From a virus, in the IMG/VR virus record IMGVR_UViG_3300045988_165665, positions 1 through 46,813 of that record: a stretch of DNA of 46,813 nucleotides; one strand, 5' to 3'. The translations under genes and the position numbers were made by a program. A model generated the notes under the pieces. The model saw only the letters and a list, made by a program, of their open reading frames with translations, did no database searches and was not told the origin of the DNA. This document shows positions 1,170 to 46,813 of the stretch, piece after piece (position 1 is the stretch's first letter; each line of letters opens with the position of its first letter).

Positions 1170-1290
1170 AACCACTATATATTGTGTTATATAATATATA
1201 TATTGTTTATATATATGTTGTATATACTTTATATATATTATATATTGCATTTCTATATATATGTTATATAATATATATATACCACATATA
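1170..1290. repeat. TA-rich iterated TATATA(T)TGT-type repeats upstream of parA (candidate centromere/operator)
   Basis: About 8 copies of tatatattgt / tatatatgtt between 1170 and 1290, directly 5' of the ParA RBS. Confidence 0.5.
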
Positions 1291-1302
1291 AGGAGTGATA
1301 TT

Positions 1303-2031
1303 ATGGAAATCATCTCTATAATAAATCAAAAGGGCGGAGTTGGAAAAACAACAACTGCCCAAAATTTAACAGCAGGTTTAAGATTGCAAAATAAAAAAGT
1401 ATTATTGCTAGATTTAGATGCACAATGTAATTTAACTTTATTACAGCAAGCAACTAAATATAAATATAATATTTTAAACGTTCTAAAAAATGAAGTTGAC
1501 ATAAATACAGCTGTCGAAAAAGATTTTATCGCTGGATCTAAGTTTCTAGTTGGTGAAAATACTGAAATTGAGTTAAATAAATTGAAAAATGAATTGCAAA
1601 AATTAAAAACTGATTATGATTATATAATAATTGATACACCACCAGCATTATCTAATATAACTATTAATGCATTAACAGCAAGTACAGATATTATAATAAC
1701 GATAACAGCAGATTTACTACCAATTCAAGGTTTAGTTGATTTATACAAAACTGTACAATCTATACAAAAAACATCTAATAAAAACCTTAATATAAAAGGG
1801 ATCTTAGTAACTAGATTTAATAAACGAACTATATTAGGAAGAACTATGTTAAATAGTCTTATTGATATAGCAGAAAAATTAAATACAAAAGTATTAAATA
1901 CCAAAATAAGAGATAGTATCTCTATAAAAGAGTCCCAAGCAAAAATGACTGATATATTTAAATATGCTAGATACTCTACAGCTGGTCGAGATTATAGAGC
2001 ATTAGTAAAAGAAATATTGGAGGATAAATAA
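1303..2031 (+). CDS. parA: ParA/Soj-type partition ATPase
   Basis: Deviant Walker A NQKGGVGKTTT. AAGGAG RBS before ATG 1303 (track start 1261 is probably too long). IIIDTPP Walker B. Confidence 0.9.
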   Translation: MEIISIINQKGGVGKTTTAQNLTAGLRLQNKKVLLLDLDAQCNLTLLQQATKYKYNILNVLKNEVDINTAVEKDFIAGSKFLVGENTEIELNKLKNELQKLKTDYDYIIIDTPPALSNITINALTASTDIIITITADLLPIQGLVDLYKTVQSIQKTSNKNLNIKGILVTRFNKRTILGRTMLNSLIDIAEKLNTKVLNTKIRDSISIKESQAKMTDIFKYARYSTAGRDYRALVKEILEDK

Positions 2032-2282
2032 TGAGTAACTTTAAAACTTTTGATAATCCAGCAGATATGCTATTAGGTTTAGATGATAACAAACCAGAAC
2101 CTGAAATAATAACAGATAAAAAAAATCTAAAAGAAATTCTTGATTATGAAAAACAAACAAAAAAGAAATTAATAGTCATTGGTCCAAAATTATTTGAAAT
2201 CATAGAAAAAAAAGCTAAAATTGATGGTCGCAGTGTTAATAATTATATAGTTAACGCATTAAAAGAATATGTACTAAAATAA
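2031..2282 (+). CDS. Small centromere-binding partner, RHH (ParG/CopG-like) C-terminus
   Basis: Translationally coupled to parA (ATGA overlap). C-terminal KIDGRSVNNYIVNALKEYV looks like ribbon-helix-helix. Confidence 0.6.
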   Translation: MSNFKTFDNPADMLLGLDDNKPEPEIITDKKNLKEILDYEKQTKKKLIVIGPKLFEIIEKKAKIDGRSVNNYIVNALKEYVLK

Positions 2283-2286
2283 TAAA

Positions 2287-2326
2287 AGAGCCTAGCACAT
2301 AAATTAGTGTTAGGCTCTTATTTTTT
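2287..2326. terminator. Bidirectional intrinsic terminator between parAB and the convergent 62-aa gene
   Basis: agagcctagcac/gtgttaggctct stem flanked by an A-run and a T-run. Confidence 0.75.
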
Positions 2327-2397
2327 ATCCATTTAGAGCTGTTTTATTTTTATCTTAATTTATACCTACAAAGATTTTAAACAGCTTATACAGGCTA

Positions 2398-2586
2398 TTA
2401 TTTTATAGCTTTTTGGCAATCCTTATACCAAAGGCACACATCTATATTACATTGTTTAGTTGCATAACAAGGATTATTTCCCTCTTGCTCCTGCAATATA
2501 TGTATCATATCTGCTTTTTTTGCTTTCTTTGGTAGTATTACAGCTCTATCTTTTGCTATAGTTTTTATTTCTTTTATTGTTGGCAT
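2398..2586 (-). CDS. 62-aa SAP/Rho-N-like protein with C-terminal Cys4 cluster
   Basis: GAAGGTGAG RBS. TIKEIKTIAKDRAVILPKKAKKADMIHILQ resembles a SAP/Rho_N helix pair, followed by CYATKQCNIDVCLWYKDC. Confidence 0.6.
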   Translation of the reverse strand: MPTIKEIKTIAKDRAVILPKKAKKADMIHILQEQEGNNPCYATKQCNIDVCLWYKDCQKAIK

Positions 2587-2961
2587 CTACTCACCTTCTT
2601 TCTTGGTATATATAAATTTATTTAAACTAGGCACTAACTTTAGCTTTACTTCTAAACTAAAAAAGATTACGCTTGGGAGGATTGCGGAGCCGTGTTCTAG
2701 ATATAGTTATACCTTTAGCGTTCTACTAAAGATATAACTATATTTTTTTACGCCTGGTTTTCTTGCGTCTGCCAGTCCAGTTTTCTACTAGTTCCTGCTT
2801 TTACACAGGTAGGATATTAATGGTTACTTAATTGCCCCAACCACCATACGTTTCCATATGTTATCCTAATACGGCTTATAGCTTATGCTACAATCCCAGT
2901 CTGCAACTTACGTTGCCTTTAACCACCGTTGTCTACTTTTAACCATATAAATATATTACTC
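2587..2961 (-). ncRNA. Structured about 370-nt leader or second module of the large RNA
   Basis: No ORF. GNRA hairpins at 2845-2860 and 2903-2916. Three-way junction closed by 2810-2816/2862-2868. 18-bp hairpin 2701-2743 has a G.U only on the minus strand. Confidence 0.5.
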
Positions 2962-2965
2962 AAAT

Positions 2966-2987
2966 AAAAAAAGCCGTCTAAACGGCT
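2966..2987 (-). terminator. Intrinsic terminator (minus strand) inside the ORF-free region
   Basis: Minus strand reads agccgtttagacggct followed by TTTTTTT. Confidence 0.7.
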
Positions 2988-3035
2988 CTCATGAGTTCTT
3001 ATTTACTTAGGCTTATTAAGGGAGTTTAACAACAT

Positions 3036-3213
3036 TCCGCCCTCTTAGGTAAATGCAAATAGTAGAATATATTTGCATGCCCCACCGATTTTCCGCCTCC
3101 GCTGGTGATACGGTTGGTTACTTTCTGCAACCACTTATTTATACACTCCGCCAAGTGTAGCTTTCGCTCTCCTAGAATAAGCATCTAGGCACGCTCTTGA
3201 CGTTTATTCCGCC
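3036..3213 (-). repeat. Four phased GGCGGA motifs (plus strand TCCGCC) at 3036, 3092, 3147 and 3208
   Basis: Spacing is 56, 55 and 61 nt. Two copies share CACTTGGCGGA. One copy sits in the loop of hairpin 3142-3159. Confidence 0.6.
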
Positions 3214-3322
3214 AAGTGATTTTAGATACTAAAAAACACATTTATCATCATTCCCACATGGGAAAAATGTAAATGTGCCTACTATTCCTACCTAAAATCA
3301 TTTTATTTTGTGATATCATATG

Positions 3323-3351
3323 TTGACATATCGCAAATACATAAGTATAAT
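3323..3351 (+). promoter_or_regulatory. Perfect sigma-70 consensus promoter TTGACA-17-TATAAT
   Basis: ttgaca at 3323-3328 and tataat at 3346-3351, with an exact 17-nt spacer. Confidence 0.75.
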
Positions 3352-3357
3352 GAGTTT

Positions 3358-3438
3358 AGAAAGTAACTCGAGCAACTTATGTTGTGGGTAGGTTGTTCGG
3401 CAAAGTCGGTTGTACTGCCAATACAATCGGCTTTTTTT
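3358..3438 (+). ncRNA. About 80-nt sRNA antisense to the 5' part of the long minus-strand RNA
   Basis: Lies between the consensus promoter and the intrinsic terminator at 3405-3438. No ORF. Confidence 0.6.
3405..3438 (+). terminator. Intrinsic terminator of the plus-strand sRNA
   Basis: 10-bp stem gtcggttgta/tacaatcggc (two G.U pairs), 7-nt loop, TTTTTTT. Confidence 0.75.
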
Positions 3439-3439
3439 A

Positions 3440-3468
3440 TTTCTAAAAACTTTTTATAAAATTGTCAA
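3440..3468 (-). promoter_or_regulatory. Second, weaker minus-strand promoter TTGACA-17-TAGAAA
   Basis: Plus-strand tgtcaa at 3463-3468. The -10 element matches 4 of 6. Confidence 0.35.
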
Positions 3469-3483
3469 ATTATTTACATCTTT

Positions 3484-3512
3484 ATAATATATTAAATTAA
3501 ATATATTGTCAA
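3484..3512 (-). promoter_or_regulatory. Near-consensus promoter TTGACA-17-TATTAT driving the long RNA
   Basis: Plus-strand tgtcaa at 3507-3512 and ataata at 3484-3489, with a 17-nt spacer. Lies just downstream of the operon terminator. Confidence 0.65.
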
Positions 3513-3514
3513 TT

Positions 3515-3548
3515 AAAAAGGGCTGCTAAAGATAGCAGCTCTTTTTTT
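3515..3548. terminator. Bidirectional terminator after the ParB-like gene
   Basis: gggctgct-aaagat-agcagctc stem flanked by an A-run and a T-run. Confidence 0.75.
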
Positions 3549-4062
3549 ATTTTATATCCCATGAATTACTAAACTCTTCATTTCTAAATAAAGATGCTAG
3601 TCCGCTCATCTGTTTTAAACGAATAACTTCATCAGCATCCATTCCTAAATGCTTCATTATCCATTTATCAGTTTTCCCCATATCTTTTAATTCTTTTACG
3701 ATATTACTCATTAAATCAACATCATGCGAACCTCTAGCTCTATTATGGCGAATTGTACTTGCCATACGTTCACCAATAGGCTTATTAACTACAGATACTG
3801 GAAGCATTCCTTTTTCACGTTCATAAATATCTTTATACTTCAGCATTATAGAATAGCGGTGAAATCCATCAACTATCTCATACATATCTTCATCTGCATT
3901 GTAATAGCAAACGATAGGCATGGTATAGCCATCTTCTTTTATGCTATCATATAATAATTTCATTTCTGGTGGTGCTACATGATTTGGATTATATTCGTTT
4001 GCACGAATTTTTTCTACTGGTACAGCTATTATATTATAAACAGGGCTTTTAAATTCTGACAT
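3547..4062 (-). CDS. ParB/Srx-fold N-terminal domain protein (IbrB-like)
   Basis: VPVEKIRANEYNPNHV...IVDGFHRY...TIRHNRARGSHD are ParB-nuclease/sulfiredoxin-type motifs. Directly follows the PAPS-reductase-like gene. Confidence 0.75.
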   Translation of the reverse strand: MSEFKSPVYNIIAVPVEKIRANEYNPNHVAPPEMKLLYDSIKEDGYTMPIVCYYNADEDMYEIVDGFHRYSIMLKYKDIYEREKGMLPVSVVNKPIGERMASTIRHNRARGSHDVDLMSNIVKELKDMGKTDKWIMKHLGMDADEVIRLKQMSGLASLFRNEEFSNSWDIK

Positions 4063-4072
4063 GATATCACTC

Positions 4073-5374
4073 CTATAAATTTTTATATTTTTCCATTATC
4101 TTCTGTTGTCTTAGTGTTAAATCTTTGGTTATAGAAAAGGATAAACCTTTGCATATTATGTCATTTTTTATAATGCACATTGCCATTCTTTTCCATGTCA
4201 ATATATCTTGCTTTTTATCTATTGGATGCTCGTCTATTATTCTTTTAAATTTAATTACTTCTTTATCACCTTTTCCTCGCTTGGAAAAACTATGTGTATT
4301 AATAATATCTTCTGGTACAGTTTCTTCTAATTCTTTTATAAAATCATCTTGCATTGGACATCCTGTTCTTTGCCAATACTTAATAAATTTTATAAATTTG
4401 GTTTTATACATCTTTGCCGTATCTGGTGGCAATGTTGACAATAAAAACTTTGTAAAACTCTTCCATGTATGATTTTTTGGCAATGTATATCTAGCGGACA
4501 TTATTTTATTACCGCTATAGATATTACCAAAGTTAGCTCCAGATACACGATTGACTACACGAACCCATAAATCTGGGGCAATAACCTTGAATAAATTCAA
4601 ACCTGCTTTTGCTTCGTTTCCAAATGGTTCATCAACACGCATTTTATCTATTGGAACACCTGCTTTATAAAACAGGTCATAAAGTTTGTTATATGGCTTA
4701 TTGTATTTGCCATAGTAAATCCAATCATCTTTTGTAGTCCAATCATATATTGGGTAAAAATTATAGCAATTATCATCTATTTTTTTGCTATAACTTTTAT
4801 CTTTATAATGATTTTCCTGCTTTCTTTGACTCCCACCGATTGCCCTAAAACGATTAAGGCTTTCATCTGTACGGATGCCTACAAGTTGAGCAGTTTTTGC
4901 ACCTGCTCCATACCATTGAGTAAAGTATTTTATAAATTCCTCAAACGGCATGTTTTCTTTATAAAAATTAAACGGATTATTTTTTAAATTTATAACCCAT
5001 TTATTTTTAGGCATAGGGCGAACCCATATAGGTTCTTTTTCTGGTTCCCACCATATCCATGTAGGATCTAAATAAGATAAACTATTTGGGCTTTCCATTG
5101 GTAGACAAACCCAGTATGGTTCAAGTACATCTTCATTTTCTGTCAGCATCTTTTCAATATACTCTATAGTTATTGGATAAAATGCTTCTAAATCAATAAA
5201 GAGAACACCTAATTTTCTTCCTCTAGCTCTTGCTATATCAATAGCCATGTTAAGAACAACACCGCTATCTTTACCGCCAGAAAAAGATATACAGACTTTA
5301 TCAAATTCATCAAATATGAAGTTTAGTCTTTCAACTGTAGCTTCATATACATTTTTGTTTTTGTATATTTTCAT
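4073..5374 (-). CDS. PAPS-reductase/PP-loop ATP-pyrophosphatase family protein with long C-terminal extension (IbrA-like)
   Basis: PP-loop SFSGGKDS near residue 30. 433 aa. Paired with the ParB-like gene, as in ibrA/ibrB. Confidence 0.75.
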   Translation of the reverse strand: MKIYKNKNVYEATVERLNFIFDEFDKVCISFSGGKDSGVVLNMAIDIARARGRKLGVLFIDLEAFYPITIEYIEKMLTENEDVLEPYWVCLPMESPNSLSYLDPTWIWWEPEKEPIWVRPMPKNKWVINLKNNPFNFYKENMPFEEFIKYFTQWYGAGAKTAQLVGIRTDESLNRFRAIGGSQRKQENHYKDKSYSKKIDDNCYNFYPIYDWTTKDDWIYYGKYNKPYNKLYDLFYKAGVPIDKMRVDEPFGNEAKAGLNLFKVIAPDLWVRVVNRVSGANFGNIYSGNKIMSARYTLPKNHTWKSFTKFLLSTLPPDTAKMYKTKFIKFIKYWQRTGCPMQDDFIKELEETVPEDIINTHSFSKRGKGDKEVIKFKRIIDEHPIDKKQDILTWKRMAMCIIKNDIICKGLSFSITKDLTLRQQKIMEKYKNL

Positions 5375-6758
5375 TGTATTTCTCCTCGTCTACATTTTTC
5401 CAAATAGCAATCTGCTTTTTGAATGAATCTAGTAGATTGCTTTTATTTTGCAAACAATTTGCTATAAAAACATCTATGGTATATTTACAGCATATATCAT
5501 AGATGTTAACCGTCCGCTCCTGGCCAATGCGGTGAACTCTATCTTCTGCCTGCAAACGAGTTGCAAGGTCAAAATCGTTCGAATAGAAGATGATGTTATG
5601 GCAAAATTGAAGATTTAAACCATAAGCTCCACATTGTTTGTTGGCCAACATAAATTGAACATCATTTTTAAACTCAATTCTATTTTGTTGACGTTGTTTA
5701 GGTCTTATTTCTCCAGTAAATTCTACAAAGGTTTTATTCATTGAATCCAAGAGAAATTTTATATCTTTTATTTCATCCTGATATTTGGCAAAGATAATAC
5801 ATTTATCATTGCCAATTTCTTCAATGACTCTTTTTAAACATTGTATACGTGGATTATTTTTCCATGTATACATCTTTTCTGTACGCATCCGTTTTTCTGG
5901 TGCTGATAACACTCTCTTACCAGAAGTAATATGTTGCAATGCAGAAAATAATTTAAATATCGTTTCCGACCGCCAATCTACTACATTAAAAAGGAATAAC
6001 TCTTTTGTTTCGTAATATTCCTCTTCTTGTAAATCATCCAAACAAAAATATCGCATATGATATTCCTTTGGTTTAAGTTCTTTTAATACCTCATCTTTTT
6101 TGATTTGGTACATATATGGAGCTATCTTTTCTGTTAAATAGTCCACATTTAGAACTCTTATAATTTGGTCGGTCGTTATCTCTCTACCACTTGGAAGCCT
6201 TACTTTTTTATATTCTAAGTGATTAGCGGCAAAGCTATAAAAAGACTTGTATCCCAATATCCGCCAATCTAAGATATACCATTGGGCGAATAAGTCCGCT
6301 TCATTCTTAGATATTGGTGTACCATTCAATATCATCTTATATTTGCAAAAAGATGATATTTCTATAATACGTTCCGTTCTTATGGCCAACTTATTTTTTA
6401 CAAGGTTGCTTTCATCCACAATTAGATAAACTTTGTAATTTTTTACTAGCTCTAACAGCTGTAAATATAATCTATCAGAACTAGACAAGCTTTCAATTCC
6501 CTTAATTATTATGTTATTTTCACTAGGTTTTTGACCTGTATGCTTTATAACATCTTCTTTAAGGTTATTTTTAACCGAACAAGGGCATAGCCAAAGTACA
6601 ACATTAACCTTTCCCTTATCCATTTTATTTTTAATAATTTCTAAAGCCGTTCTCGTCTTTCCTGTTCCTTGCTCCATATACAAAGCACCAACTTTAAGCT
6701 TAGAAAGTTTATCGACAGCTTTAGATTGGTATTTATATAGTTTTGTTTTTAAAATCAT
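5343..6758 (-). CDS. SNF2-family helicase/ATPase
   Basis: Motif I EQGTGKT, motif II LIVDESN and motif VI QAEDRVHRIGQ. Coupled to both neighbours. Confidence 0.85.
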   Translation of the reverse strand: MILKTKLYKYQSKAVDKLSKLKVGALYMEQGTGKTRTALEIIKNKMDKGKVNVVLWLCPCSVKNNLKEDVIKHTGQKPSENNIIIKGIESLSSSDRLYLQLLELVKNYKVYLIVDESNLVKNKLAIRTERIIEISSFCKYKMILNGTPISKNEADLFAQWYILDWRILGYKSFYSFAANHLEYKKVRLPSGREITTDQIIRVLNVDYLTEKIAPYMYQIKKDEVLKELKPKEYHMRYFCLDDLQEEEYYETKELFLFNVVDWRSETIFKLFSALQHITSGKRVLSAPEKRMRTEKMYTWKNNPRIQCLKRVIEEIGNDKCIIFAKYQDEIKDIKFLLDSMNKTFVEFTGEIRPKQRQQNRIEFKNDVQFMLANKQCGAYGLNLQFCHNIIFYSNDFDLATRLQAEDRVHRIGQERTVNIYDICCKYTIDVFIANCLQNKSNLLDSFKKQIAIWKNVDEEKYNENIQKQKCI

Positions 6759-10148: not shown

Positions 10149-10517
10149 TTAGGCTGTAGCTGTACCTGTTAATTGTGGTGGTACAAAAGCTGTTGGGCAA
10201 AGATTATTAGTTTTAACAGTAGCAGATGGTGTAGCTGTATTTGCACGCAATACGTAAATTCTTCTTTTTCTAATTTGGTCTGCATATACTGGTTTACCGC
10301 ATTTATTAATAAGAGTTAAAGTATTGGATCCATTAATAATATTAATTGGCAATACACCTGCACCAGTTGGAATATCTTGGGCGATTAATAAGCAGATTTT
10401 TTGATTATCGTTTATAGTCATGGTCGGAATTGTGATTTGAAGTACAGAGCCACTAACAGCAATATCTGTGGAAGCCACTAAATTAGGGCAAACTTGACAA
10501 TTATTGATACAATTCAT
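10149..10517 (-). CDS. Cys-rich beta-rich 122-aa protein
   Basis: N-terminal CINNCQVC plus three further Cys residues. AGAGG RBS. No family recognised. Confidence 0.6.
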   Translation of the reverse strand: MNCINNCQVCPNLVASTDIAVSGSVLQITIPTMTINDNQKICLLIAQDIPTGAGVLPINIINGSNTLTLINKCGKPVYADQIRKRRIYVLRANTATPSATVKTNNLCPTAFVPPQLTGTATA

Positions 10518-10591
10518 TTTTATTACCTCTTTTCTAAATTAAAAAAGGCGGTTGTTACACCGCCTATAAAATCACGTCTATTGACGGAGCA

Positions 10592-11119
10592 TTAGCAATT
10601 TGTACAAGAATTGCAATTATTTGTATTGTATGCATATCCAGGAGGAATTGGTGTACCACAATTAATGAAACCTGCACTCCAATATGGTGGACGCTGTGGA
10701 ATGTTGCATGCTAACTGGGAAATTTTCTGGTCTAATGCAGTAAACATTCCTTCATTTTGTCTTTCTAATTGATTGAATTTATTATCATTATAAATACGAT
10801 TTTTAAGTTGTAAGTTTTCGTTTGTTACTTCATTTATTTTATCTCGTAATCCTTGGATTTGATAATAATCTACTTTATTGCCAAGTGCATTAATGCCTGC
10901 ATTGGTCATTTCTTGAGTCTGACGTGCTGTTTGTTCGATTAAATACTGTGTTCTAGCACTGTCTATAATTTCTTGTTTTTCTACTTCACAAGGTGTAGCA
11001 CCGCAACAATTTCCACGATTGCCGAAGAAATTTCCAAAACCGCCACCCATGAACATAAATAAGAGGATTAAGAAGATAATGAGTCCCCATCCACTCATTC
11101 CTGTGTTTTTTTCATCCAT
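10592..11119 (-). CDS. Membrane-anchored coiled-coil protein with Cys-rich C-terminus
   Basis: AAGGAG RBS 8 nt before ATG 11119 (the track GTG at 11128 is unlikely). TM segment WGLIIFLILLFMF, a Gly-rich stretch, then C-terminal NNCNSCTNC. Confidence 0.6.
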   Translation of the reverse strand: MDEKNTGMSGWGLIIFLILLFMFMGGGFGNFFGNRGNCCGATPCEVEKQEIIDSARTQYLIEQTARQTQEMTNAGINALGNKVDYYQIQGLRDKINEVTNENLQLKNRIYNDNKFNQLERQNEGMFTALDQKISQLACNIPQRPPYWSAGFINCGTPIPPGYAYNTNNCNSCTNC

Positions 11120-11175
11120 TAAAAACACTCCTTTATAAAATTTTTATATTATACAAGCAAAATTTGCTGTATAAG

Positions 11176-11556
11176 CTATTTTAGTTGGCTTAGACCTCGT
11201 CTAAACTTATCTAAGCCATTTGTTGTTACTGGATTATTATTACCAGCCTGTCTATTAACTTGAGTGGTGTTACCACCTGTATTTCCACCTGCTAAGGCAT
11301 CTATCTTCATTCGCATGTCATTGATATTTATACCTGCCATATTTGCTAATACTGTAGCCATAGGATTATTTAATGCTCCTTTTACTTTGGCTAAAATTGT
11401 AGAATTTATACCAGCTTGTTGTAATATATTCATTGCATCTTGCTGTGTATTAACGTTTTTGGCCATATTGCTTGCTGGTCCCCACGCTTGTTGCAATTTG
11501 CTTGCCTGCTGTGGATTTAATTTCATCATTTGTGCTATTACTTGCGGATTTAACAT
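11176..11556 (-). CDS. Q/N-rich 126-aa protein
   Basis: GAGGAG RBS 7 nt before ATG 11556. Low-complexity Gln/Asn-rich sequence. Confidence 0.6.
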   Translation of the reverse strand: MLNPQVIAQMMKLNPQQASKLQQAWGPASNMAKNVNTQQDAMNILQQAGINSTILAKVKGALNNPMATVLANMAGININDMRMKIDALAGGNTGGNTTQVNRQAGNNNPVTTNGLDKFRRGLSQLK

Positions 11557-11869
11557 TTTTTAACTCCTCTATTTCTTTATTCATTTCTTCTATTTTTGCC
11601 GATAACGCTAAATTTTGCTGATTATTATCTTTTATTTGTCGTAATAACTCTTGCATAAGCTGATTTTGCTCTTGTTGTATTTGTTCTGGTGTCTTTTCTG
11701 GAACTATTACACCTAACTCTACTAATTTGTTGTAATATTCTTCTGTTATTTTGTTTAAATCCTCATACGCTTTATTTGTTACACCGATTACAGTTTTATT
11801 TCCGTATAAGTCTTTATCACAAATTTTGTCGCCTTCAATTACATATTGTCTAAAATTTTCATACATCAT
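11450..11869 (-). CDS. 139-aa coiled-coil protein, first gene of the cassette
   Basis: GGAG RBS. The last 35 codons overlap the next gene in another frame. Confidence 0.6.
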   Translation of the reverse strand: MMYENFRQYVIEGDKICDKDLYGNKTVIGVTNKAYEDLNKITEEYYNKLVELGVIVPEKTPEQIQQEQNQLMQELLRQIKDNNQQNLALSAKIEEMNKEIEELKNVKSASNSTNDEIKSTAGKQIATSVGTSKQYGQKR

Positions 11870-41560: not shown

Positions 41561-42298
41561 TTATACCTCCAATTCTTTATATGCTTTTTCTATACAATCT
41601 AAAAATGTATAATTGCATGATATTTCTATATGTGATTTTCTTATTTTTACAAATCCCATATTTTGTAATTTATATAAAATATCTTCCACTGTTCTATATT
41701 CCAAGCCAAAAACATTTTTAAATGTTGAATATATTGTGTTAAATTCTAACCATGATGCATTATTATCTAGCGTTGGTTCTGGTAGATTATCTATTATTAT
41801 TGCTAATGCTACCCATATATTAGGCTTGTACTCTCTTTTACAATAGAAATCCCCCTGTTTTCTTATTAATGGCAATAAAGCTCTATTCATGCTTTCTTTT
41901 TCTGCTATTTTAGGAATATACATATTTAGCAATACATTTAAATCCGCCACTATTAAATCAGATTTAAATTCATATAATCCTGATAACTCTTTTAAAATGT
42001 ATTGTTTGTCAAAGTCGCTAAGGCTAAATACTAATCTCCAAATGCTGTCTTGGTTATAAGTTAAAATCTTATAGTGCATAACTTCCATTGTGATGTTTTC
42101 CTCAAGAAATCTATCATGTGCTTTTATAAGACTGCCAAGAGGTGTTAATTTCTTCCCATTACTTAACCCTGTTAATTTAAGCCAGCTTTTTAAAACTTTT
42201 ACTTGATTGGCTGTTATTCCTAATTCTTCTGGCTTTAAGTTGTTATATTTAAGACCTTTTGCTAGGTGTCTTAAGTTAAAAGCTCCATAGTTTTTCAT
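41561..42298 (-). CDS. 245-aa protein, possibly DUF4007-like (low confidence)
   Basis: ATG 42298 overlaps the upstream stop. LGITANQVKVLKSWLKLTGL resembles the LGVGKNMV..IRYWL.ATGL motif as I remember it. Confidence 0.35.
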   Translation of the reverse strand: MKNYGAFNLRHLAKGLKYNNLKPEELGITANQVKVLKSWLKLTGLSNGKKLTPLGSLIKAHDRFLEENITMEVMHYKILTYNQDSIWRLVFSLSDFDKQYILKELSGLYEFKSDLIVADLNVLLNMYIPKIAEKESMNRALLPLIRKQGDFYCKREYKPNIWVALAIIIDNLPEPTLDNNASWLEFNTIYSTFKNVFGLEYRTVEDILYKLQNMGFVKIRKSHIEISCNYTFLDCIEKAYKELEV

Positions 42299-42522
42299 CA
42301 CAATTCCCCATACCAGCACCAAGTATCTTTAGACCATGCTAATAAATCTAAATATTCTTGTGCTTTGTTATACGTAGAAAATATCTTGTTGTTTTTTTCT
42401 ACATATCTATTGCCTTCTAATTCTGAACCAATATCTTTTGTATATACTGTATATTGGTTATTTTTTAATTGATGTACATAGTAAATACGCTTTCCGTCTG
42501 TGTATTTATCGCTTTTAACCAC
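42298..42522 (-). CDS. Hypothetical 74-aa protein (GTG start)
   Basis: AAAGAG RBS. 58-nt overlap with the upstream ORF. Confidence 0.4.
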   Translation of the reverse strand: MVKSDKYTDGKRIYYVHQLKNNQYTVYTKDIGSELEGNRYVEKNNKIFSTYNKAQEYLDLLAWSKDTWCWYGEL

Positions 42523-42866
42523 GTAAAATCACTCTTTCTACCTGTCCTTGCGTAAAGTTTATACTCCGCCATTTTTTGTATATATACCATGTTGGGGTAA
42601 TAAGCCTTTACTATTCCATAACTTAATCCTGTCTTTTGTGATATATCTCTAAATTTACAAATAAAATCATTACCTCTTCTTATTTTTAATTTTCTCTGTT
42701 CTATTATCTCCTTTCTCTTCTTTAAAAATTCTCTTAACATCTTATTTTTTCTCAATCTCTTGCATTCACTTGAACAGCATTTAATACGTGAACTTGTTGT
42801 TTTAAATGTTGCACCGCAATATTCACATTTTTTCTCTATTATCTTGGGCTTATACAATTCATTCAC
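42465..42866 (-). CDS. Zinc-ribbon plus HTH-like 133-aa protein
   Basis: CEYCG...CCSSEC, then a basic helix and ISQKTGLSYGIVKAY. Confidence 0.5.
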   Translation of the reverse strand: MNELYKPKIIEKKCEYCGATFKTTSSRIKCCSSECKRLRKNKMLREFLKKRKEIIEQRKLKIRRGNDFICKFRDISQKTGLSYGIVKAYYPNMVYIQKMAEYKLYARTGRKSDFTWLKAINTQTESVFTMYIN

Positions 42867-43713
42867 CCCAATCTTCTATTACCTCTGGTACATCTATATT
42901 TTCCAAAGGCTTTCTATATTTACTCTTTTTAAACTTCTGATACTGGCTATCTATTCTGTACATGGTTATTCTTTGTACCCTGCAACATTCATAATAGCCA
43001 CCATTATCTGCCCAGCCATAGCCATCATATATACTATTTTTGTCTATTATGTAGCCTTTTGGGGCTTTTTTTGTTGCCATGTTCCACCATCTATTATTTT
43101 TTATAACTTTGGTGGTTACTAATGGCATTTTTAAATTCTTAGATGCACAAAATCTTTTCTTATGCACCTTTTCTTTTCTGTAGAATTGTTCTCTACTATT
43201 TTTAATCAAATATGAAGCAAGCTTTTTGTATTCCCCACTGTAATCTAAATGTCTTATCGTTACTCTTGGGTATTTACATTCTTCTGTACCAACTATTCTT
43301 TGCCATGCTTTAGTTAGTACATCAGTATCGTGCTTGTTCATCACAATATGAAAGTGGATCATACCTTTTTTTGTGATGCCAGCCACGTAAATATACTTGA
43401 GCTTCTTTTGCTCTCTTTTGTATATTCTTCTCACTGTGTCCAGAAATGTATTTATATTTTTTCTGGCCACATCTATATCTATTTTTTTATGTGGTGGATA
43501 ATTTAGCGTTAAGAATAAATCTCCACCTTCAAAATTTTCATTTAATTTGTATCGGCAGATACGCTCTGCTTTTTTGTCTTGGTAACGCAACTGCTTCAAC
43601 GGTGTTTTACCTAGTGCAGGGCCATTAGGTATATTCTTTCCATATCTGCCACTATAGTATTGGAACTGGTCTATATAATTTTTTCCATATACCTTTTTCT
43701 GCACTAGTGCCAT
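42859..43713 (-). CDS. HUH-superfamily rolling-circle replication initiator (Rep_1/pC194-phiX-like motif order)
   Basis: Motif I LFLTLNY, motif II IHFHIVM and motif III LASYLIKN. AAGGAGG RBS. Confidence 0.75.
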   Translation of the reverse strand: MALVQKKVYGKNYIDQFQYYSGRYGKNIPNGPALGKTPLKQLRYQDKKAERICRYKLNENFEGGDLFLTLNYPPHKKIDIDVARKNINTFLDTVRRIYKREQKKLKYIYVAGITKKGMIHFHIVMNKHDTDVLTKAWQRIVGTEECKYPRVTIRHLDYSGEYKKLASYLIKNSREQFYRKEKVHKKRFCASKNLKMPLVTTKVIKNNRWWNMATKKAPKGYIIDKNSIYDGYGWADNGGYYECCRVQRITMYRIDSQYQKFKKSKYRKPLENIDVPEVIEDWGE

Positions 43714-45175: not shown

Positions 45176-45955
45176 TTAATTGATGCCATACTGTATAGAC
45201 ATCTTCTTTAATACTGCTATTGCACTATTAATAAGCCTGGCATCTTCCTCGATAATATCGAGTTTATTAATTTCTTTTATTTTGTTTTTATTTAATCCAG
45301 CTTTATAAGCTCTTTCTTTCTTGTTTTTTAATCTTATATTCAAATTGCAATGTGCTTCATTTTCCAGACGCTCATAAAATTCATGTCTTATCGCTTGATA
45401 TGGATTTTCCATATCTAAGCAAGGATAATATTTTGCAATTTTTCTCGTTACTGAACCAAAATATAGACGCCAATTACTGGCGTTTATTTGTTCGAGTTCT
45501 TTTATCTGCTCAATATTAGATTCAATCTTAGCAAGACGATTAGAATGTTCTTCTAATCGTTTTTGCTGTTCTTTCATCAACTTGATTGATTGTTCAAGAA
45601 TATCGAGCTGTGTTAAAGGTTTTTGCTGTTGCATTAACAACTGTTTTTCCATCTGCTCAAATTTTGTTACATATTCAGCAGTGAATAATACACCTTTTTC
45701 ACCCGTTAACTTATTTGCGACCATGTCGCAACCTTTACGAGTAAGATTGTAACAAGGTCTAGTTTCTCTTTTACTATCTACATAACTTGATTTAATAAAG
45801 AAATCTAACGAACGCAATTTTGCGTTGGTTAAAATTTGTACATAGCCATCAATACTACGCATTAAATCTGCATGACGTTTTCCAATCATTTCAGCCACCT
45901 GACGACTATCTACATAAATTTTCCCATTTTCATTAATTAGTTGTAATTCGTTCAT
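45176..45955 (-). CDS. Rha-family phage regulatory protein/antirepressor with coiled-coil C-terminal domain
   Basis: GGGGAGGG RBS before ATG 45955. IYVDSRQVAEMIGKRHADLMRSIDGY is the pRha motif. Confidence 0.85.
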   Translation of the reverse strand: MNELQLINENGKIYVDSRQVAEMIGKRHADLMRSIDGYVQILTNAKLRSLDFFIKSSYVDSKRETRPCYNLTRKGCDMVANKLTGEKGVLFTAEYVTKFEQMEKQLLMQQQKPLTQLDILEQSIKLMKEQQKRLEEHSNRLAKIESNIEQIKELEQINASNWRLYFGSVTRKIAKYYPCLDMENPYQAIRHEFYERLENEAHCNLNIRLKNKKERAYKAGLNKNKIKEINKLDIIEEDARLINSAIAVLKKMSIQYGIN

Positions 45956-46527: not shown

Positions 46528-46813
46528 ATGGAAAAAATAAATGAACGAATAAAACAAATAAGAAAAACACTTAATTTATCTCAAGCTGCTTTCGGTAAAA
46601 AAATTGATGTTAGTTCTTCAGCAATAGGCTGTTGGGATATTGGTATACGACAACCAAAACCTATCCACATTTCAGCAATTTGCAATATTTTTAATATAAA
46701 TGAAGAATGGTTATTACATGGAACAGGAGAAATGTTAAAAAAAGACATTGATAATAATCCTGCTTTAACACAAATAGCTAAAGAATATAATTTAACTTCA
46801 ACACAAAAAAAAT
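46528..46813 (+). CDS. XRE-family CI-like repressor, N-terminal HTH part (continues in frame into 1..304; 166 aa in total)
   Basis: GGGAGG RBS 7 nt before ATG 46528. MEKINERIKQIRKTLNLSQAAFGKKIDVSSSAIGCWDIG is a classic HTH_3. ATG at 46732 (= position 8) is in frame (204 nt). Confidence 0.85.
   Translation, partial: MEKINERIKQIRKTLNLSQAAFGKKIDVSSSAIGCWDIGIRQPKPIHISAICNIFNINEEWLLHGTGEMLKKDIDNNPALTQIAKEYNLTSTQKK
46725..46813 (+). repeat. Terminal overlap identical to 1..89
   Basis: Same 89 nt as the window start. Confidence 0.95.

Follow-up and report, generated by a model that had tools for sequence, protein, structure and literature searches.

Analysis of a viral DNA sequence of 46,813 nucleotides (IMG/VR record IMGVR_UViG_3300045988_165665; hereafter the window, meaning this entire stretch) identified a locus next to a partition cassette which, judging from covariation among its homologs, encodes a real structured RNA on the minus strand, of ~830 nt or more, folded into two domains that include one or more pseudoknots, a three-way junction and GNRA loops. 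The 5' region of this long RNA is fully complementary to a short antisense RNA predicted on the plus strand, each of the two has its own promoter, and this arrangement is conserved in both lineages of the element, that of the window and that of a Megamonas plasmid (the window type and the Megamonas type). We hypothesize that the locus is a new, non-homologous, Rep-independent replicon of the RNA II/RNA I kind, which would provide plasmid-state replication and copy control to a phage-plasmid. It is the genomic context that suggests replication, and we give this hypothesis about an even chance of being correct. It was adopted because a region free of open reading frames (ORFs), a nested antisense RNA, partition genes as neighbours, a single copy per replicon and otherwise no plasmid initiator together correspond to a known architecture.

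The ORF check confirmed an observation made in a preliminary description of this DNA, that no ORF of 60 aa or more is present in any frame between 2587 and 3546; this gap is bounded by a 62-aa ORF (2398-2586, minus strand) and a ParB_N-like gene (3547-4062, minus strand). The G+C content in 200-nt windows was 0.365-0.43 across 2700-3300, versus 0.19-0.30 over most of plus-strand positions 1-2500 (one window reached 0.33) and 0.24-0.35 beyond 3400. Thus, the enrichment in G+C that had been described holds, while the value of 48% given for it is a per-line figure and the maximum at the 200-nt scale is 43%. A consensus scan recovered the minus-strand promoter of the long RNA (TTGACA-17-TATTAT, 3512..3484), from which we place the RNA start near 3477, and a minus-strand terminator at 2990..2969. 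All of the promoters, terminators and hairpins listed in the preliminary description are present, and the named hairpins, when re-derived, agreed in their coordinates within a base or two. Both hexamers of the long-RNA promoter are kept in all window-type homologs, with a spacer that varies, and in the alignment TTGACG-17-TATTAT occupies the equivalent place in the Megamonas type. Two further signals had gone unmentioned, namely a plus-strand promoter (TTGACA-17-TATAAT, 3323-3351) and a plus-strand terminator (3402-3434). Altogether, terminator-like sites numbered 5 in 1.5 kb, compared with 0.7 expected. ARAGORN found no tRNA or tmRNA.

Homologs were collected by several routes. Among 50,697 phage records, blastn found nothing similar to the locus; a search with 8 kb of structural genes gave no match either. 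Against 72,556 plasmids (PLSDB), blastn gave a single match, of 285 nt and 68% identity, in an unannotated stretch of the Megamonas funiformis JCM 14723 plasmid NZ_CP048628.1 (L039 among our loci); the Megamonas sequence used in turn as the query against PLSDB gave two further matches, both short and of low complexity. Two blocks that are invariant between the window and the Megamonas plasmid were then combined into a search pattern, which identified 9 IMG/VR contigs (35-45 kb) and 23 human-gut metagenome contigs. The same scan of GTDB representative genomes gave 4 matches in unrelated phyla, which appeared chance-like and were not used, and three more viral pattern scans, one of them with a wrongly sized gap, returned the same 9 contigs or none. 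Relatives of the 62-aa protein led to five additional RNA loci (L040-43 and L044). Since L044 departs in sequence in one loop that we had earlier taken as invariant, the pattern scans probably undersampled the family.

By nhmmer, homology extends over the whole span 2650-3477 in more than 30 loci. The entire ~900-nt stretch is homologous in window-type loci, L023 and L024 form an intermediate lineage, and the Megamonas type has the core in common with them. The final set contains ~25 distinct sequences, from human-gut metagenomes, the 9 IMG/VR phage contigs and one M. funiformis conjugative plasmid; the element is found on related plasmid contigs and on circular phage genomes of about 35-47 kb as well, and it is single-copy in both complete replicons, the window and the Megamonas plasmid. 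No ORF within the region is conserved across lineages, and no homolog carries an intact ORF here; the window has one of 52 aa (3184..3026), which in L010, L011, L024 and the Megamonas type is either broken by frameshifts or missing.

Covariation among these homologs, which had been proposed as a test of the structure, was strong, and it supports the earlier prediction of a large structured noncoding RNA on the minus strand. Pairs were compared with a control in which the partners were slid by 1-3 columns. The sequences represent three or four lineages from one habitat, and cell counts overstate the number of independent events; at the level of the alignments, the double-change pair counts and the slid controls are nevertheless unambiguous despite the few lineages. 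In domain 1 (3296-2966; alignment A2, 21 distinct sequences), 69 pairs were 96.9% paired, versus 39-49% for slid partners, and 31 of them showed changes on both sides, some with five pair types; the covariation score was 0.377 versus 0.06-0.07. The structured strand is the minus strand, as the preliminary description had called it, because many frequent or invariant G-U pairs of the minus strand would be A-C mismatches on the plus strand.

Domain 1 proper (2991..3296, minus strand) consists of the helices H1 (3237-3277), P2 (3196-3216), P5 (3143-3158), P6 (3115-3133) and P9 (3019-3043), together with the P3 hairpin (3171-3189), the GNRA-capped P4 hairpin GCGAAAGC (3159-3168) and the 9-bp P8 hairpin (3053-3078), the last three of which had been named before and are present. 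P7a and P7b (3083-3113) form an H-type pseudoknot, in which CCGU/GCGG is interleaved with CACC/GGUG. Both helices were 100% paired, and changes on both sides were observed at three pairs of CACC/GGUG and one of CCGU/GCGG. The loops of the short hairpins stay GNRA despite changes in sequence (GAAA, GAGA, GGAA). Upstream of domain 1, the minus-strand hairpin H0 (3312..3332), which overlaps the -35 element of the antisense promoter, was 94% paired with one compensatory pair.

The core of domain 2 (2785..2948, minus strand) was evaluated in alignment A4, which was used in place of A3, where MAFFT had mis-registered the start of the domain. Its 34 pairs were 96.8% paired, versus 27-42% when slid, and 19 were compensatory. 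They make up a GUAA hairpin (2903-2916), hairpins at 2872-2898 and 2794-2809, and a three-way junction (2811-2867) that carries a GAAA hairpin (2846-2859) and a hairpin with a GGGC loop. A candidate helix ACGG/CCGU in this domain was dropped in favor of UGG/CCG, in view of an L031 variant (U-G to U-A) and of the MAFFT register. Downstream of domain 2, an 18-bp hairpin (2701..2743, minus strand) is conserved in structure and differs in sequence between lineages. Its proximal part (alignment A6) has 13 pairs, 98% paired versus 20-54% when slid, of which 4 are compensatory, and its distal part covaries between lineages (CUUUAG/CUAAAG, UUUGUUAU/AUAACAAG and CCUGUAGU/ACUACAGG).

Between the two domains lies a hairpin resembling an intrinsic terminator, followed by U7 (2966..2990, minus strand), which is kept in all homologs and is re-registered as AGAGCC/GGCUCU in L007 and L011. 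It forms the tip of a helix that joins domain 1 to domain 2 across the terminator (2942..3012, minus strand). In the window, this bridging helix pairs GCC (3012-3010) with GGU (2944-2942), UAAAUA (3005-3000) with UAUUUA (2953-2948) and ACUCA (2996-2992) with UGAGU (2962-2958), and it contains GUAUAC/GUAUAU in the Megamonas type and ACAUA/UAUGU in L024. Minimum free energy folds of the inter-domain segment alone gave the same bridging architecture in 13 of 13 variants, from every lineage, and 4 of the 6 alignable middle pairs were compensatory. RNAalifold applied to alignment A7 returned the terminator only, and the helix was therefore defined by the per-sequence folds and manual pair counts. 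As the sequence 3' of the terminator appears to have been selected to pair with sequence 5' of it, we conclude from these comparisons that the two domains are one RNA and that read-through transcripts are functional. This argues against taking the product of 470-515 nt, the size given earlier to the first terminator, as the whole RNA, and in favor of a read-through species of ~830 nt or more. The long RNA (2650..3477, minus strand) would thus comprise the leader, domain 1, the internal terminator hairpin, domain 2, the long hairpin and a 3' tail, and its transcript may extend into the 62-aa ORF, to end at the hairpin at 2326-2287.

Some sequence motifs of the two domains may reflect tertiary structure. 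Domain 1 has two copies of CCUAAG close to its 3' end (3019-3013 and 3046-3041), and a UAUGG is present at the start of domain 2 (2947-2943); we take the two motifs to be the halves of the classic 11-nt GAAA-tetraloop receptor. In the Megamonas and L024 types, these positions read CCUAAA and CAUGG, a change from G-U to A-C that can be isosteric. A tertiary-contact motif is thus possible.

The second RNA of the locus is predicted from its promoter and terminator as a small RNA of ~85 nt on the plus strand (3358..3441), composed of two 13-bp hairpins. Its promoter (3323..3351, plus strand) is a perfect TTGACA-17-TATAAT with 12/12 consensus matches, the hexamers of which are conserved while the spacer varies; in the alignment, the Megamonas type likewise has a perfect TTGACA-17-TATAAT, shifted by ~40 nt. 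SL1 (3368-3400) has a 7-nt loop at 3381-3387, and SL2, with its loop at 3415-3421, is the intrinsic terminator (3402-3434), which is followed by a U-run. The antisense RNA folds with a z-score of -4.9. In alignment A5 (19 distinct sequences), its 26 pairs were 97.8% paired. SL1 was 99% paired and is a stable hairpin on the plus strand only, with all changes on the 5' arm and pairing kept by G-U pairs that do not exist on the minus strand, and SL2 showed seven compensatory pairs. The 95-nt antisense region occurred in 19 versions among 21 loci. Most of the differences lie in the SL2 stem and the two loops, and variants of the loops were reassorted among loci that are otherwise near-identical. 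By analogy with the incompatibility determinants of antisense-controlled replicons, this diversity is the pattern that would be expected of a specificity determinant.

On the opposite strand, the 5' leader of the long RNA contains the antisense region entirely (3358..3441, minus strand), including a hypervariable loop, and would be the antisense target. This leader carries an invariant GCCGAACAACCUACC at 3401-3387, and its CCUACC is complementary to GGUAGG (3291-3286), which lies in UUUAGGUAGG (3296-3287) at the foot of domain 1. At the same two positions, the Megamonas type has (CUACUAAAG)n and CUUUAGUAG, and the complementarity between the leader and the base of domain 1 is thus kept by entirely different sequences in the two lineages. 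Because the sequence of the downstream partner is also present in the antisense RNA, it is plausible, from the sequences of these two states, that this RNA competes for the leader and acts as a folding switch.

Additional features of the leader were observed. The Megamonas-type leader contains 5-8 tandem copies of a 10-nt unit, CUACUAAAAG (L039, ~45250-45330; also in L029 and L037), the copy number of which varies between loci, with one or two degenerate copies in L016 and L020. These repeats could be antisense targets, or could additionally be protein-binding or centromere-like sites. In the window, the GUAA hairpin of domain 2, GCAACGUAAGUUGC (2903-2915), is identical at 12 of 13 positions to a leader segment (3372-3384) within the antisense target, and this resemblance could allow the antisense RNA to pair with domain 2 as well. 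In L011 the two segments do not covary, and the resemblance may be a coincidence.

The genome that carries the locus is a lambda-like tailed phage, with a gpA-type terminase, a capsid-protease, a tail tube, an endolysin and a Rha-type regulator. Its first and last 89 bases are identical (1-89 and 46725-46813), which indicates a circular assembly of 46,724 bp and a complete element. A partition cassette encoding ParA (1261-2031, plus strand) and an Arc/RHH ParG-like protein (2031-2282, plus strand) is convergent with the RNA locus. Neither an integrase nor a theta-type Rep family was found among the ~50 window ORFs scanned, and no Rep gene adjoins the RNA locus. Thus, because it is circular, carries phage genes and a ParA/ParG cassette, and lacks an integrase match, the window is a phage-plasmid. 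The only Rep in the window is an HUH rolling-circle initiator (REP_ORF2-G2P, phrog_3584; 42859-43713, minus strand), ~4.4 kb from parA across the circle junction, which is 97-98% conserved in L004, L005 and L030 and ~30% identical in L022 and L035; it is presumably the lytic rolling-circle initiator.

The Megamonas record is a 46-kb conjugative plasmid with a type IV secretion system, MobA/MobL, ArdA and SSB. No Rep is annotated on it and PLSDB gives it no replicon type; its larger hypothetical proteins were scanned with Pfam and NCBIfam, and none matched a Rep. Here the RNA (45500-44509, minus strand) is divergent from a parA gene that spans the record start. In every locus with enough flanking sequence, a ParA gene adjoins the RNA or lies within ~2 kb of it, even though ParA identity across loci falls to 35-60%, and the genes on the opposite side differ. 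The neighbours occur in two arrangements, in which the RNA is followed by the 62-aa ORF and convergent parG-parA, or is divergent from parA. Because L040-43 combine a backbone of the Megamonas-plasmid kind (90% nucleotide identity over ArdA-SSB-539 aa) with the other arrangement, that with the 62-aa ORF and convergent parG-parA, sequence comparison indicates that the module is exchanged between plasmids and phages of Megamonas-like hosts, and we infer from this exchange that the host of the window phage is itself probably Megamonas-like. The constant ParA partner on both plasmids and phage-plasmids points to a role in plasmid maintenance rather than to a phage-specific ornate RNA.

In the mechanism that we propose, the strong promoter at 3512-3484 would drive the long structured minus-strand RNA, the counterpart of RNA II (a pre-primer or origin RNA), and the convergent promoter at 3323-3351 would drive the ~85-nt two-hairpin antisense RNA, the counterpart of RNA I, complementary over its full length to the leader at the 5' end of the long RNA. 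Antisense RNA bound to an invariant leader element (CCGAACAACCUACC) would compete with the long-range pairing of that element to GGUAGG at the base of domain 1. Competition at the leader would redirect folding of the long RNA and/or read-through and in this way set the copy number. The hypervariable antisense loops would set specificity, i.e., incompatibility, and the adjoining ParA/ParG cassette would segregate the copies. We infer, in this scheme, the initiation of DNA synthesis by the long RNA, the position of the origin and the action of the antisense RNA as a negative regulator.

Comparison with known replicons indicates that the locus belongs by sequence to none of the ColE1, MRB or mycobacteriophage-origin families, although its organization recalls each of them. 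ColE1 is a known RNA-based replicon with RNA II/RNA I control. The present locus resembles it in having a long, putative pre-primer RNA and a short antisense RNA to the 5' end of this RNA, in the convergent logic, in the proposed ability of the antisense RNA to alter downstream folding, in loops that would act as specificity determinants, and in a downstream gene for a small protein of ~62 aa, which is like rom in size and position only. However, it is not homologous to ColE1, as it has no Rfam RNAI match and blastn against PLSDB gave only the Megamonas plasmid. Furthermore, its antisense RNA has two hairpins rather than three, its 62-aa protein is HeH/Rho_N-like rather than a Rop four-helix bundle, and its long RNA has an internal terminator and an elaborate tertiary-type fold. 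Theta replicons with iterons and a Rep protein differ in another way: no DnaA box was found in 2200-3700, no direct-repeat families were found beyond chance two-copy matches, there are no iterons, and no Rep gene adjoins the locus.

The MRB plasmids of Vibrionaceae (prototype pB1067) carry no Rep; their incompatibility is determined by a two-hairpin RNA I of 68 nt that lies within an RNA II of at least 465 nt, and an RNA I region of 110 bp is conserved among the plasmids of this family (Le Roux, Davis & Waldor 2011, PMC3035462). In common with MRB, the present locus has an ORF-free putative origin region, a consensus RNA I promoter and a two-stem-loop RNA I which ends in a terminator and lies within the 5' part of RNA II (68 nt there and ~85 nt here), and the RNA I region is the specificity determinant in MRB. 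The two share no sequence similarity, as distant-mode blastn against the 72,556 plasmids matched no Vibrio plasmid and only that of Megamonas. They also differ in that the host belongs here to the Bacillota/Negativicutes, the long RNA is about twice as long, with two covarying domains and an internal terminator, and the function is predicted. In mycobacteriophage prophages with parABS and without RepA, a noncoding RNA next to parA is necessary and sufficient for plasmid-state replication (Wetzel et al. 2020, PMC7157519). These prophages resemble the elements described here in being extrachromosomal, lacking an integrase and RepA, and carrying a noncoding RNA divergent from parA, as in the Megamonas-type arrangement, whereas they have Actinobacteria as hosts, show no similarity by blastn (50,697 phage records), and are described, in the text consulted, with neither an antisense partner nor a conserved secondary structure for the RNA.

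Several points weigh against an RNA-based replicon. The replication function is deduced from context only. With its pseudoknot, three-way junction and GNRA loops over ~830 nt, the fold goes far beyond the described primers of the RNA II type in both complexity and conservation, which hints at an additional or different activity, and the ColE1 model does not include a conserved intrinsic terminator midway along the primer RNA. The HUH Rep ~4.4 kb from parA could in principle also serve the plasmid state of the phage, and a 539-aa protein of the Megamonas plasmid (35689-37308) that has no assigned function may be a novel initiator. In addition, the homologs all belong to a single group that is narrow in both ecology and taxonomy, and the compensatory changes represent few independent events. 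Finally, GC skew gave no origin signal at the locus; gene orientation dominates the skew, which makes it uninformative.

The strongest of the alternatives is that the long RNA is an ornate noncoding RNA of mobile elements with a non-replicative role, as a ribonucleoprotein scaffold, in anti-defence or host manipulation, or as a ribozyme, the dosage of which is tuned by the cis-antisense RNA; its linkage to ParA would then merely reflect residence in a maintenance or accessory region. ROOL and GOLLD are other large phage and plasmid RNAs without known function, and the very complex conserved fold described here, with its GNRA loops, pseudoknot and invariant loops, is typical of RNAs that have tertiary structure and a partner. 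The priming role, moreover, is deduced from context. On the other hand, such an RNA would leave unexplained the constant linkage to ParA in two arrangements while other neighbours change, the missing Rep of the Megamonas plasmid and the incompatibility-like diversification of the antisense loops, and no large-RNA family of Rfam matches the locus. We regard this alternative as possible and somewhat unlikely. As to Rfam, cmscan of the whole window with all 4227 Rfam 15 models gave no match at gathering thresholds, and at E<=10 the interval 2250-3600 gave only sub-threshold matches to terminator-like small RNAs and microRNAs, and no large RNA family; there was no match to the ROOL, GOLLD, OLE, raiA, HEARO, group II intron, riboswitch or RNAI models. 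These results agree with the preliminary description, in which the RNA could not be placed in a known family, and give no support to the resemblance to ROOL/GOLLD suggested at that time. What the RNA has in common with ROOL, GOLLD, OLE and raiA is its large size (>500 nt), multi-domain structure, frequent carriage by phages or plasmids in that group, and a biochemical function that is not known; it differs from them in its dedicated cis-antisense RNA and constant ParA neighbour, as well as in the lack of a covariance-model match.

Other candidate RNA classes were tried and rejected. GGCGGAA occurs four times in the window type, as in a CsrB-like protein sponge, yet is not conserved in the Megamonas type. 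A packaging RNA like the phi29 pRNA and a phage immunity RNA (P1 c4 or P4 CI) were set aside because a conjugative plasmid also carries the element, and a TnpB omega-RNA was set aside because the Megamonas tnpB gene is 3 kb away and on the opposite strand.

A stronger version of the replicon hypothesis, which we consider rather improbable, is that the long RNA, belonging to a new class of ornate multi-domain RNAs, would be more than a primer and would initiate replication itself, as a folded RNA machine defining the origin and recruiting or positioning host replication or RNA-processing enzymes. As part of the same conjecture, it would possibly process its own 3' end, and the antisense RNA would be its sole regulator.

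We also considered whether the RNA is a cis-regulatory leader, i.e., an antisense-controlled attenuator like those of pT181 and pIP501, which would govern the 62-aa protein through the internal terminator. This protein (2398..2586, minus strand) is HeH/LEM-like (Rho_N-like), and its ORF, which has a Shine-Dalgarno sequence, directly follows the RNA in window-type loci and is likewise found 3' of it in the plasmid loci L040-43; a conserved terminator lies between leader and ORF, and the antisense RNA targets the leader. However, no HeH or other ORF is found 3' of the RNA in the Megamonas plasmid, yet the RNA is conserved there in full length, and in L044 the RNA is followed by a GIY-YIG gene and the HeH gene lies on the other side of parA without an RNA, so that the locus differs from pT181/pIP501 attenuation and the 62-aa protein belongs to the module as an accessory rather than as a constant component. 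A leader of ~890 nt with two covarying domains would also be disproportionate for a 62-aa gene, and the antisense target is ~400 nt upstream of the terminator. Attenuation of this gene is thus quite unlikely. The HeH protein has a Cys-rich C-terminus and recurs beside ParA genes (also at L044 6001-6204 and L039 5981-6190), and the L044 gene is directly divergent from parA; it may be a DNA-binding protein accessory to partition or to the origin.

Two last explanations appear very improbable. A type I toxin-antitoxin or post-segregational killing system of the hok/sok or fst kind, in which a short antisense RNA represses a structured toxin mRNA, would agree with a long structured RNA and a short 5' cis-antisense RNA on plasmids beside partition genes, but no small ORF is conserved in the long RNA and there is no common hydrophobic peptide. 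Equally far-fetched is that the locus does not act as RNA, being a decayed gene or a single-stranded DNA structure (an Frpo-like single-stranded DNA promoter or an ssi site of a conjugative leading region): the element does lie next to the leading-region genes ardA-ssb in L040-43, and G-T wobbles are tolerated in single-stranded DNA, but the homologs do not keep any reading frame, each strand is bounded by a strong sigma-70 promoter and a U-run terminator, the structured strand has opposite orientations relative to ardA in L040 and the Megamonas plasmid, the same element occurs in non-conjugative phage genomes, and GNRA tetraloops and pseudoknots are hallmarks of RNA.

Some neighbouring genes were also noted. 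In the window, the minus-strand cluster at 3547-6758 encodes a ParB_N-like protein of 171 aa and a PAPS-reductase/DUF3440 protein of 433 aa (an IbrB/IbrA-like pair) together with an SNF2-family helicase, and looks like a DNA-modification or anti-restriction module; it lies immediately 5' of the RNA promoter in some relatives (L028, L010) and not in others. A DUF4007 protein is encoded at 41561-42322. On the Megamonas plasmid, a gene annotated as a hypothetical protein (10424-11014, minus strand) matches the NCBIfam model of the type III toxin-antitoxin toxin CptIN (E = 8e-55), and a repeat-RNA antitoxin for this CptIN-like toxin may lie upstream, at 11015-11585. In L044, the GIY-YIG endonuclease gene (3400-4251) lies between the RNA and parA, and an HNH gene is found on the other side of the RNA; these genes may be homing-endonuclease insertions into the maintenance module.

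Altogether, this analysis adds to the large structured RNAs a well-supported class of ~830 nt, with GNRA loops and a pseudoknot, for which Rfam has no family. Also new here are the antisense partner of this RNA, the finding that its two domains are continuous across the terminator, the distribution on plasmids and phage-plasmids with ParA as a constant neighbour, and the replicon hypothesis. The same maintenance module moves between conjugative plasmids and phage-plasmids of a common human-gut genus. If the replicon hypothesis is true, the locus would add to ColE1, MRB and the mycobacteriophage origins another independent family of RNA-based replicons that lack a Rep, to our knowledge the first in Bacillota/Negativicutes. 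In that case, the 1.1-kb self-contained origin and the partition cassette would be a candidate backbone for vectors in Megamonas and related bacteria, which have few genetic tools, and the naturally diversified antisense loops would offer ready-made compatible variants. If the long RNA should in addition prove to be an initiator in its own right, a large structured bacterial RNA would gain a defined role in DNA replication, and the Negativicutes would possess a protein-free replicon family that is exchanged between conjugative plasmids and phages.

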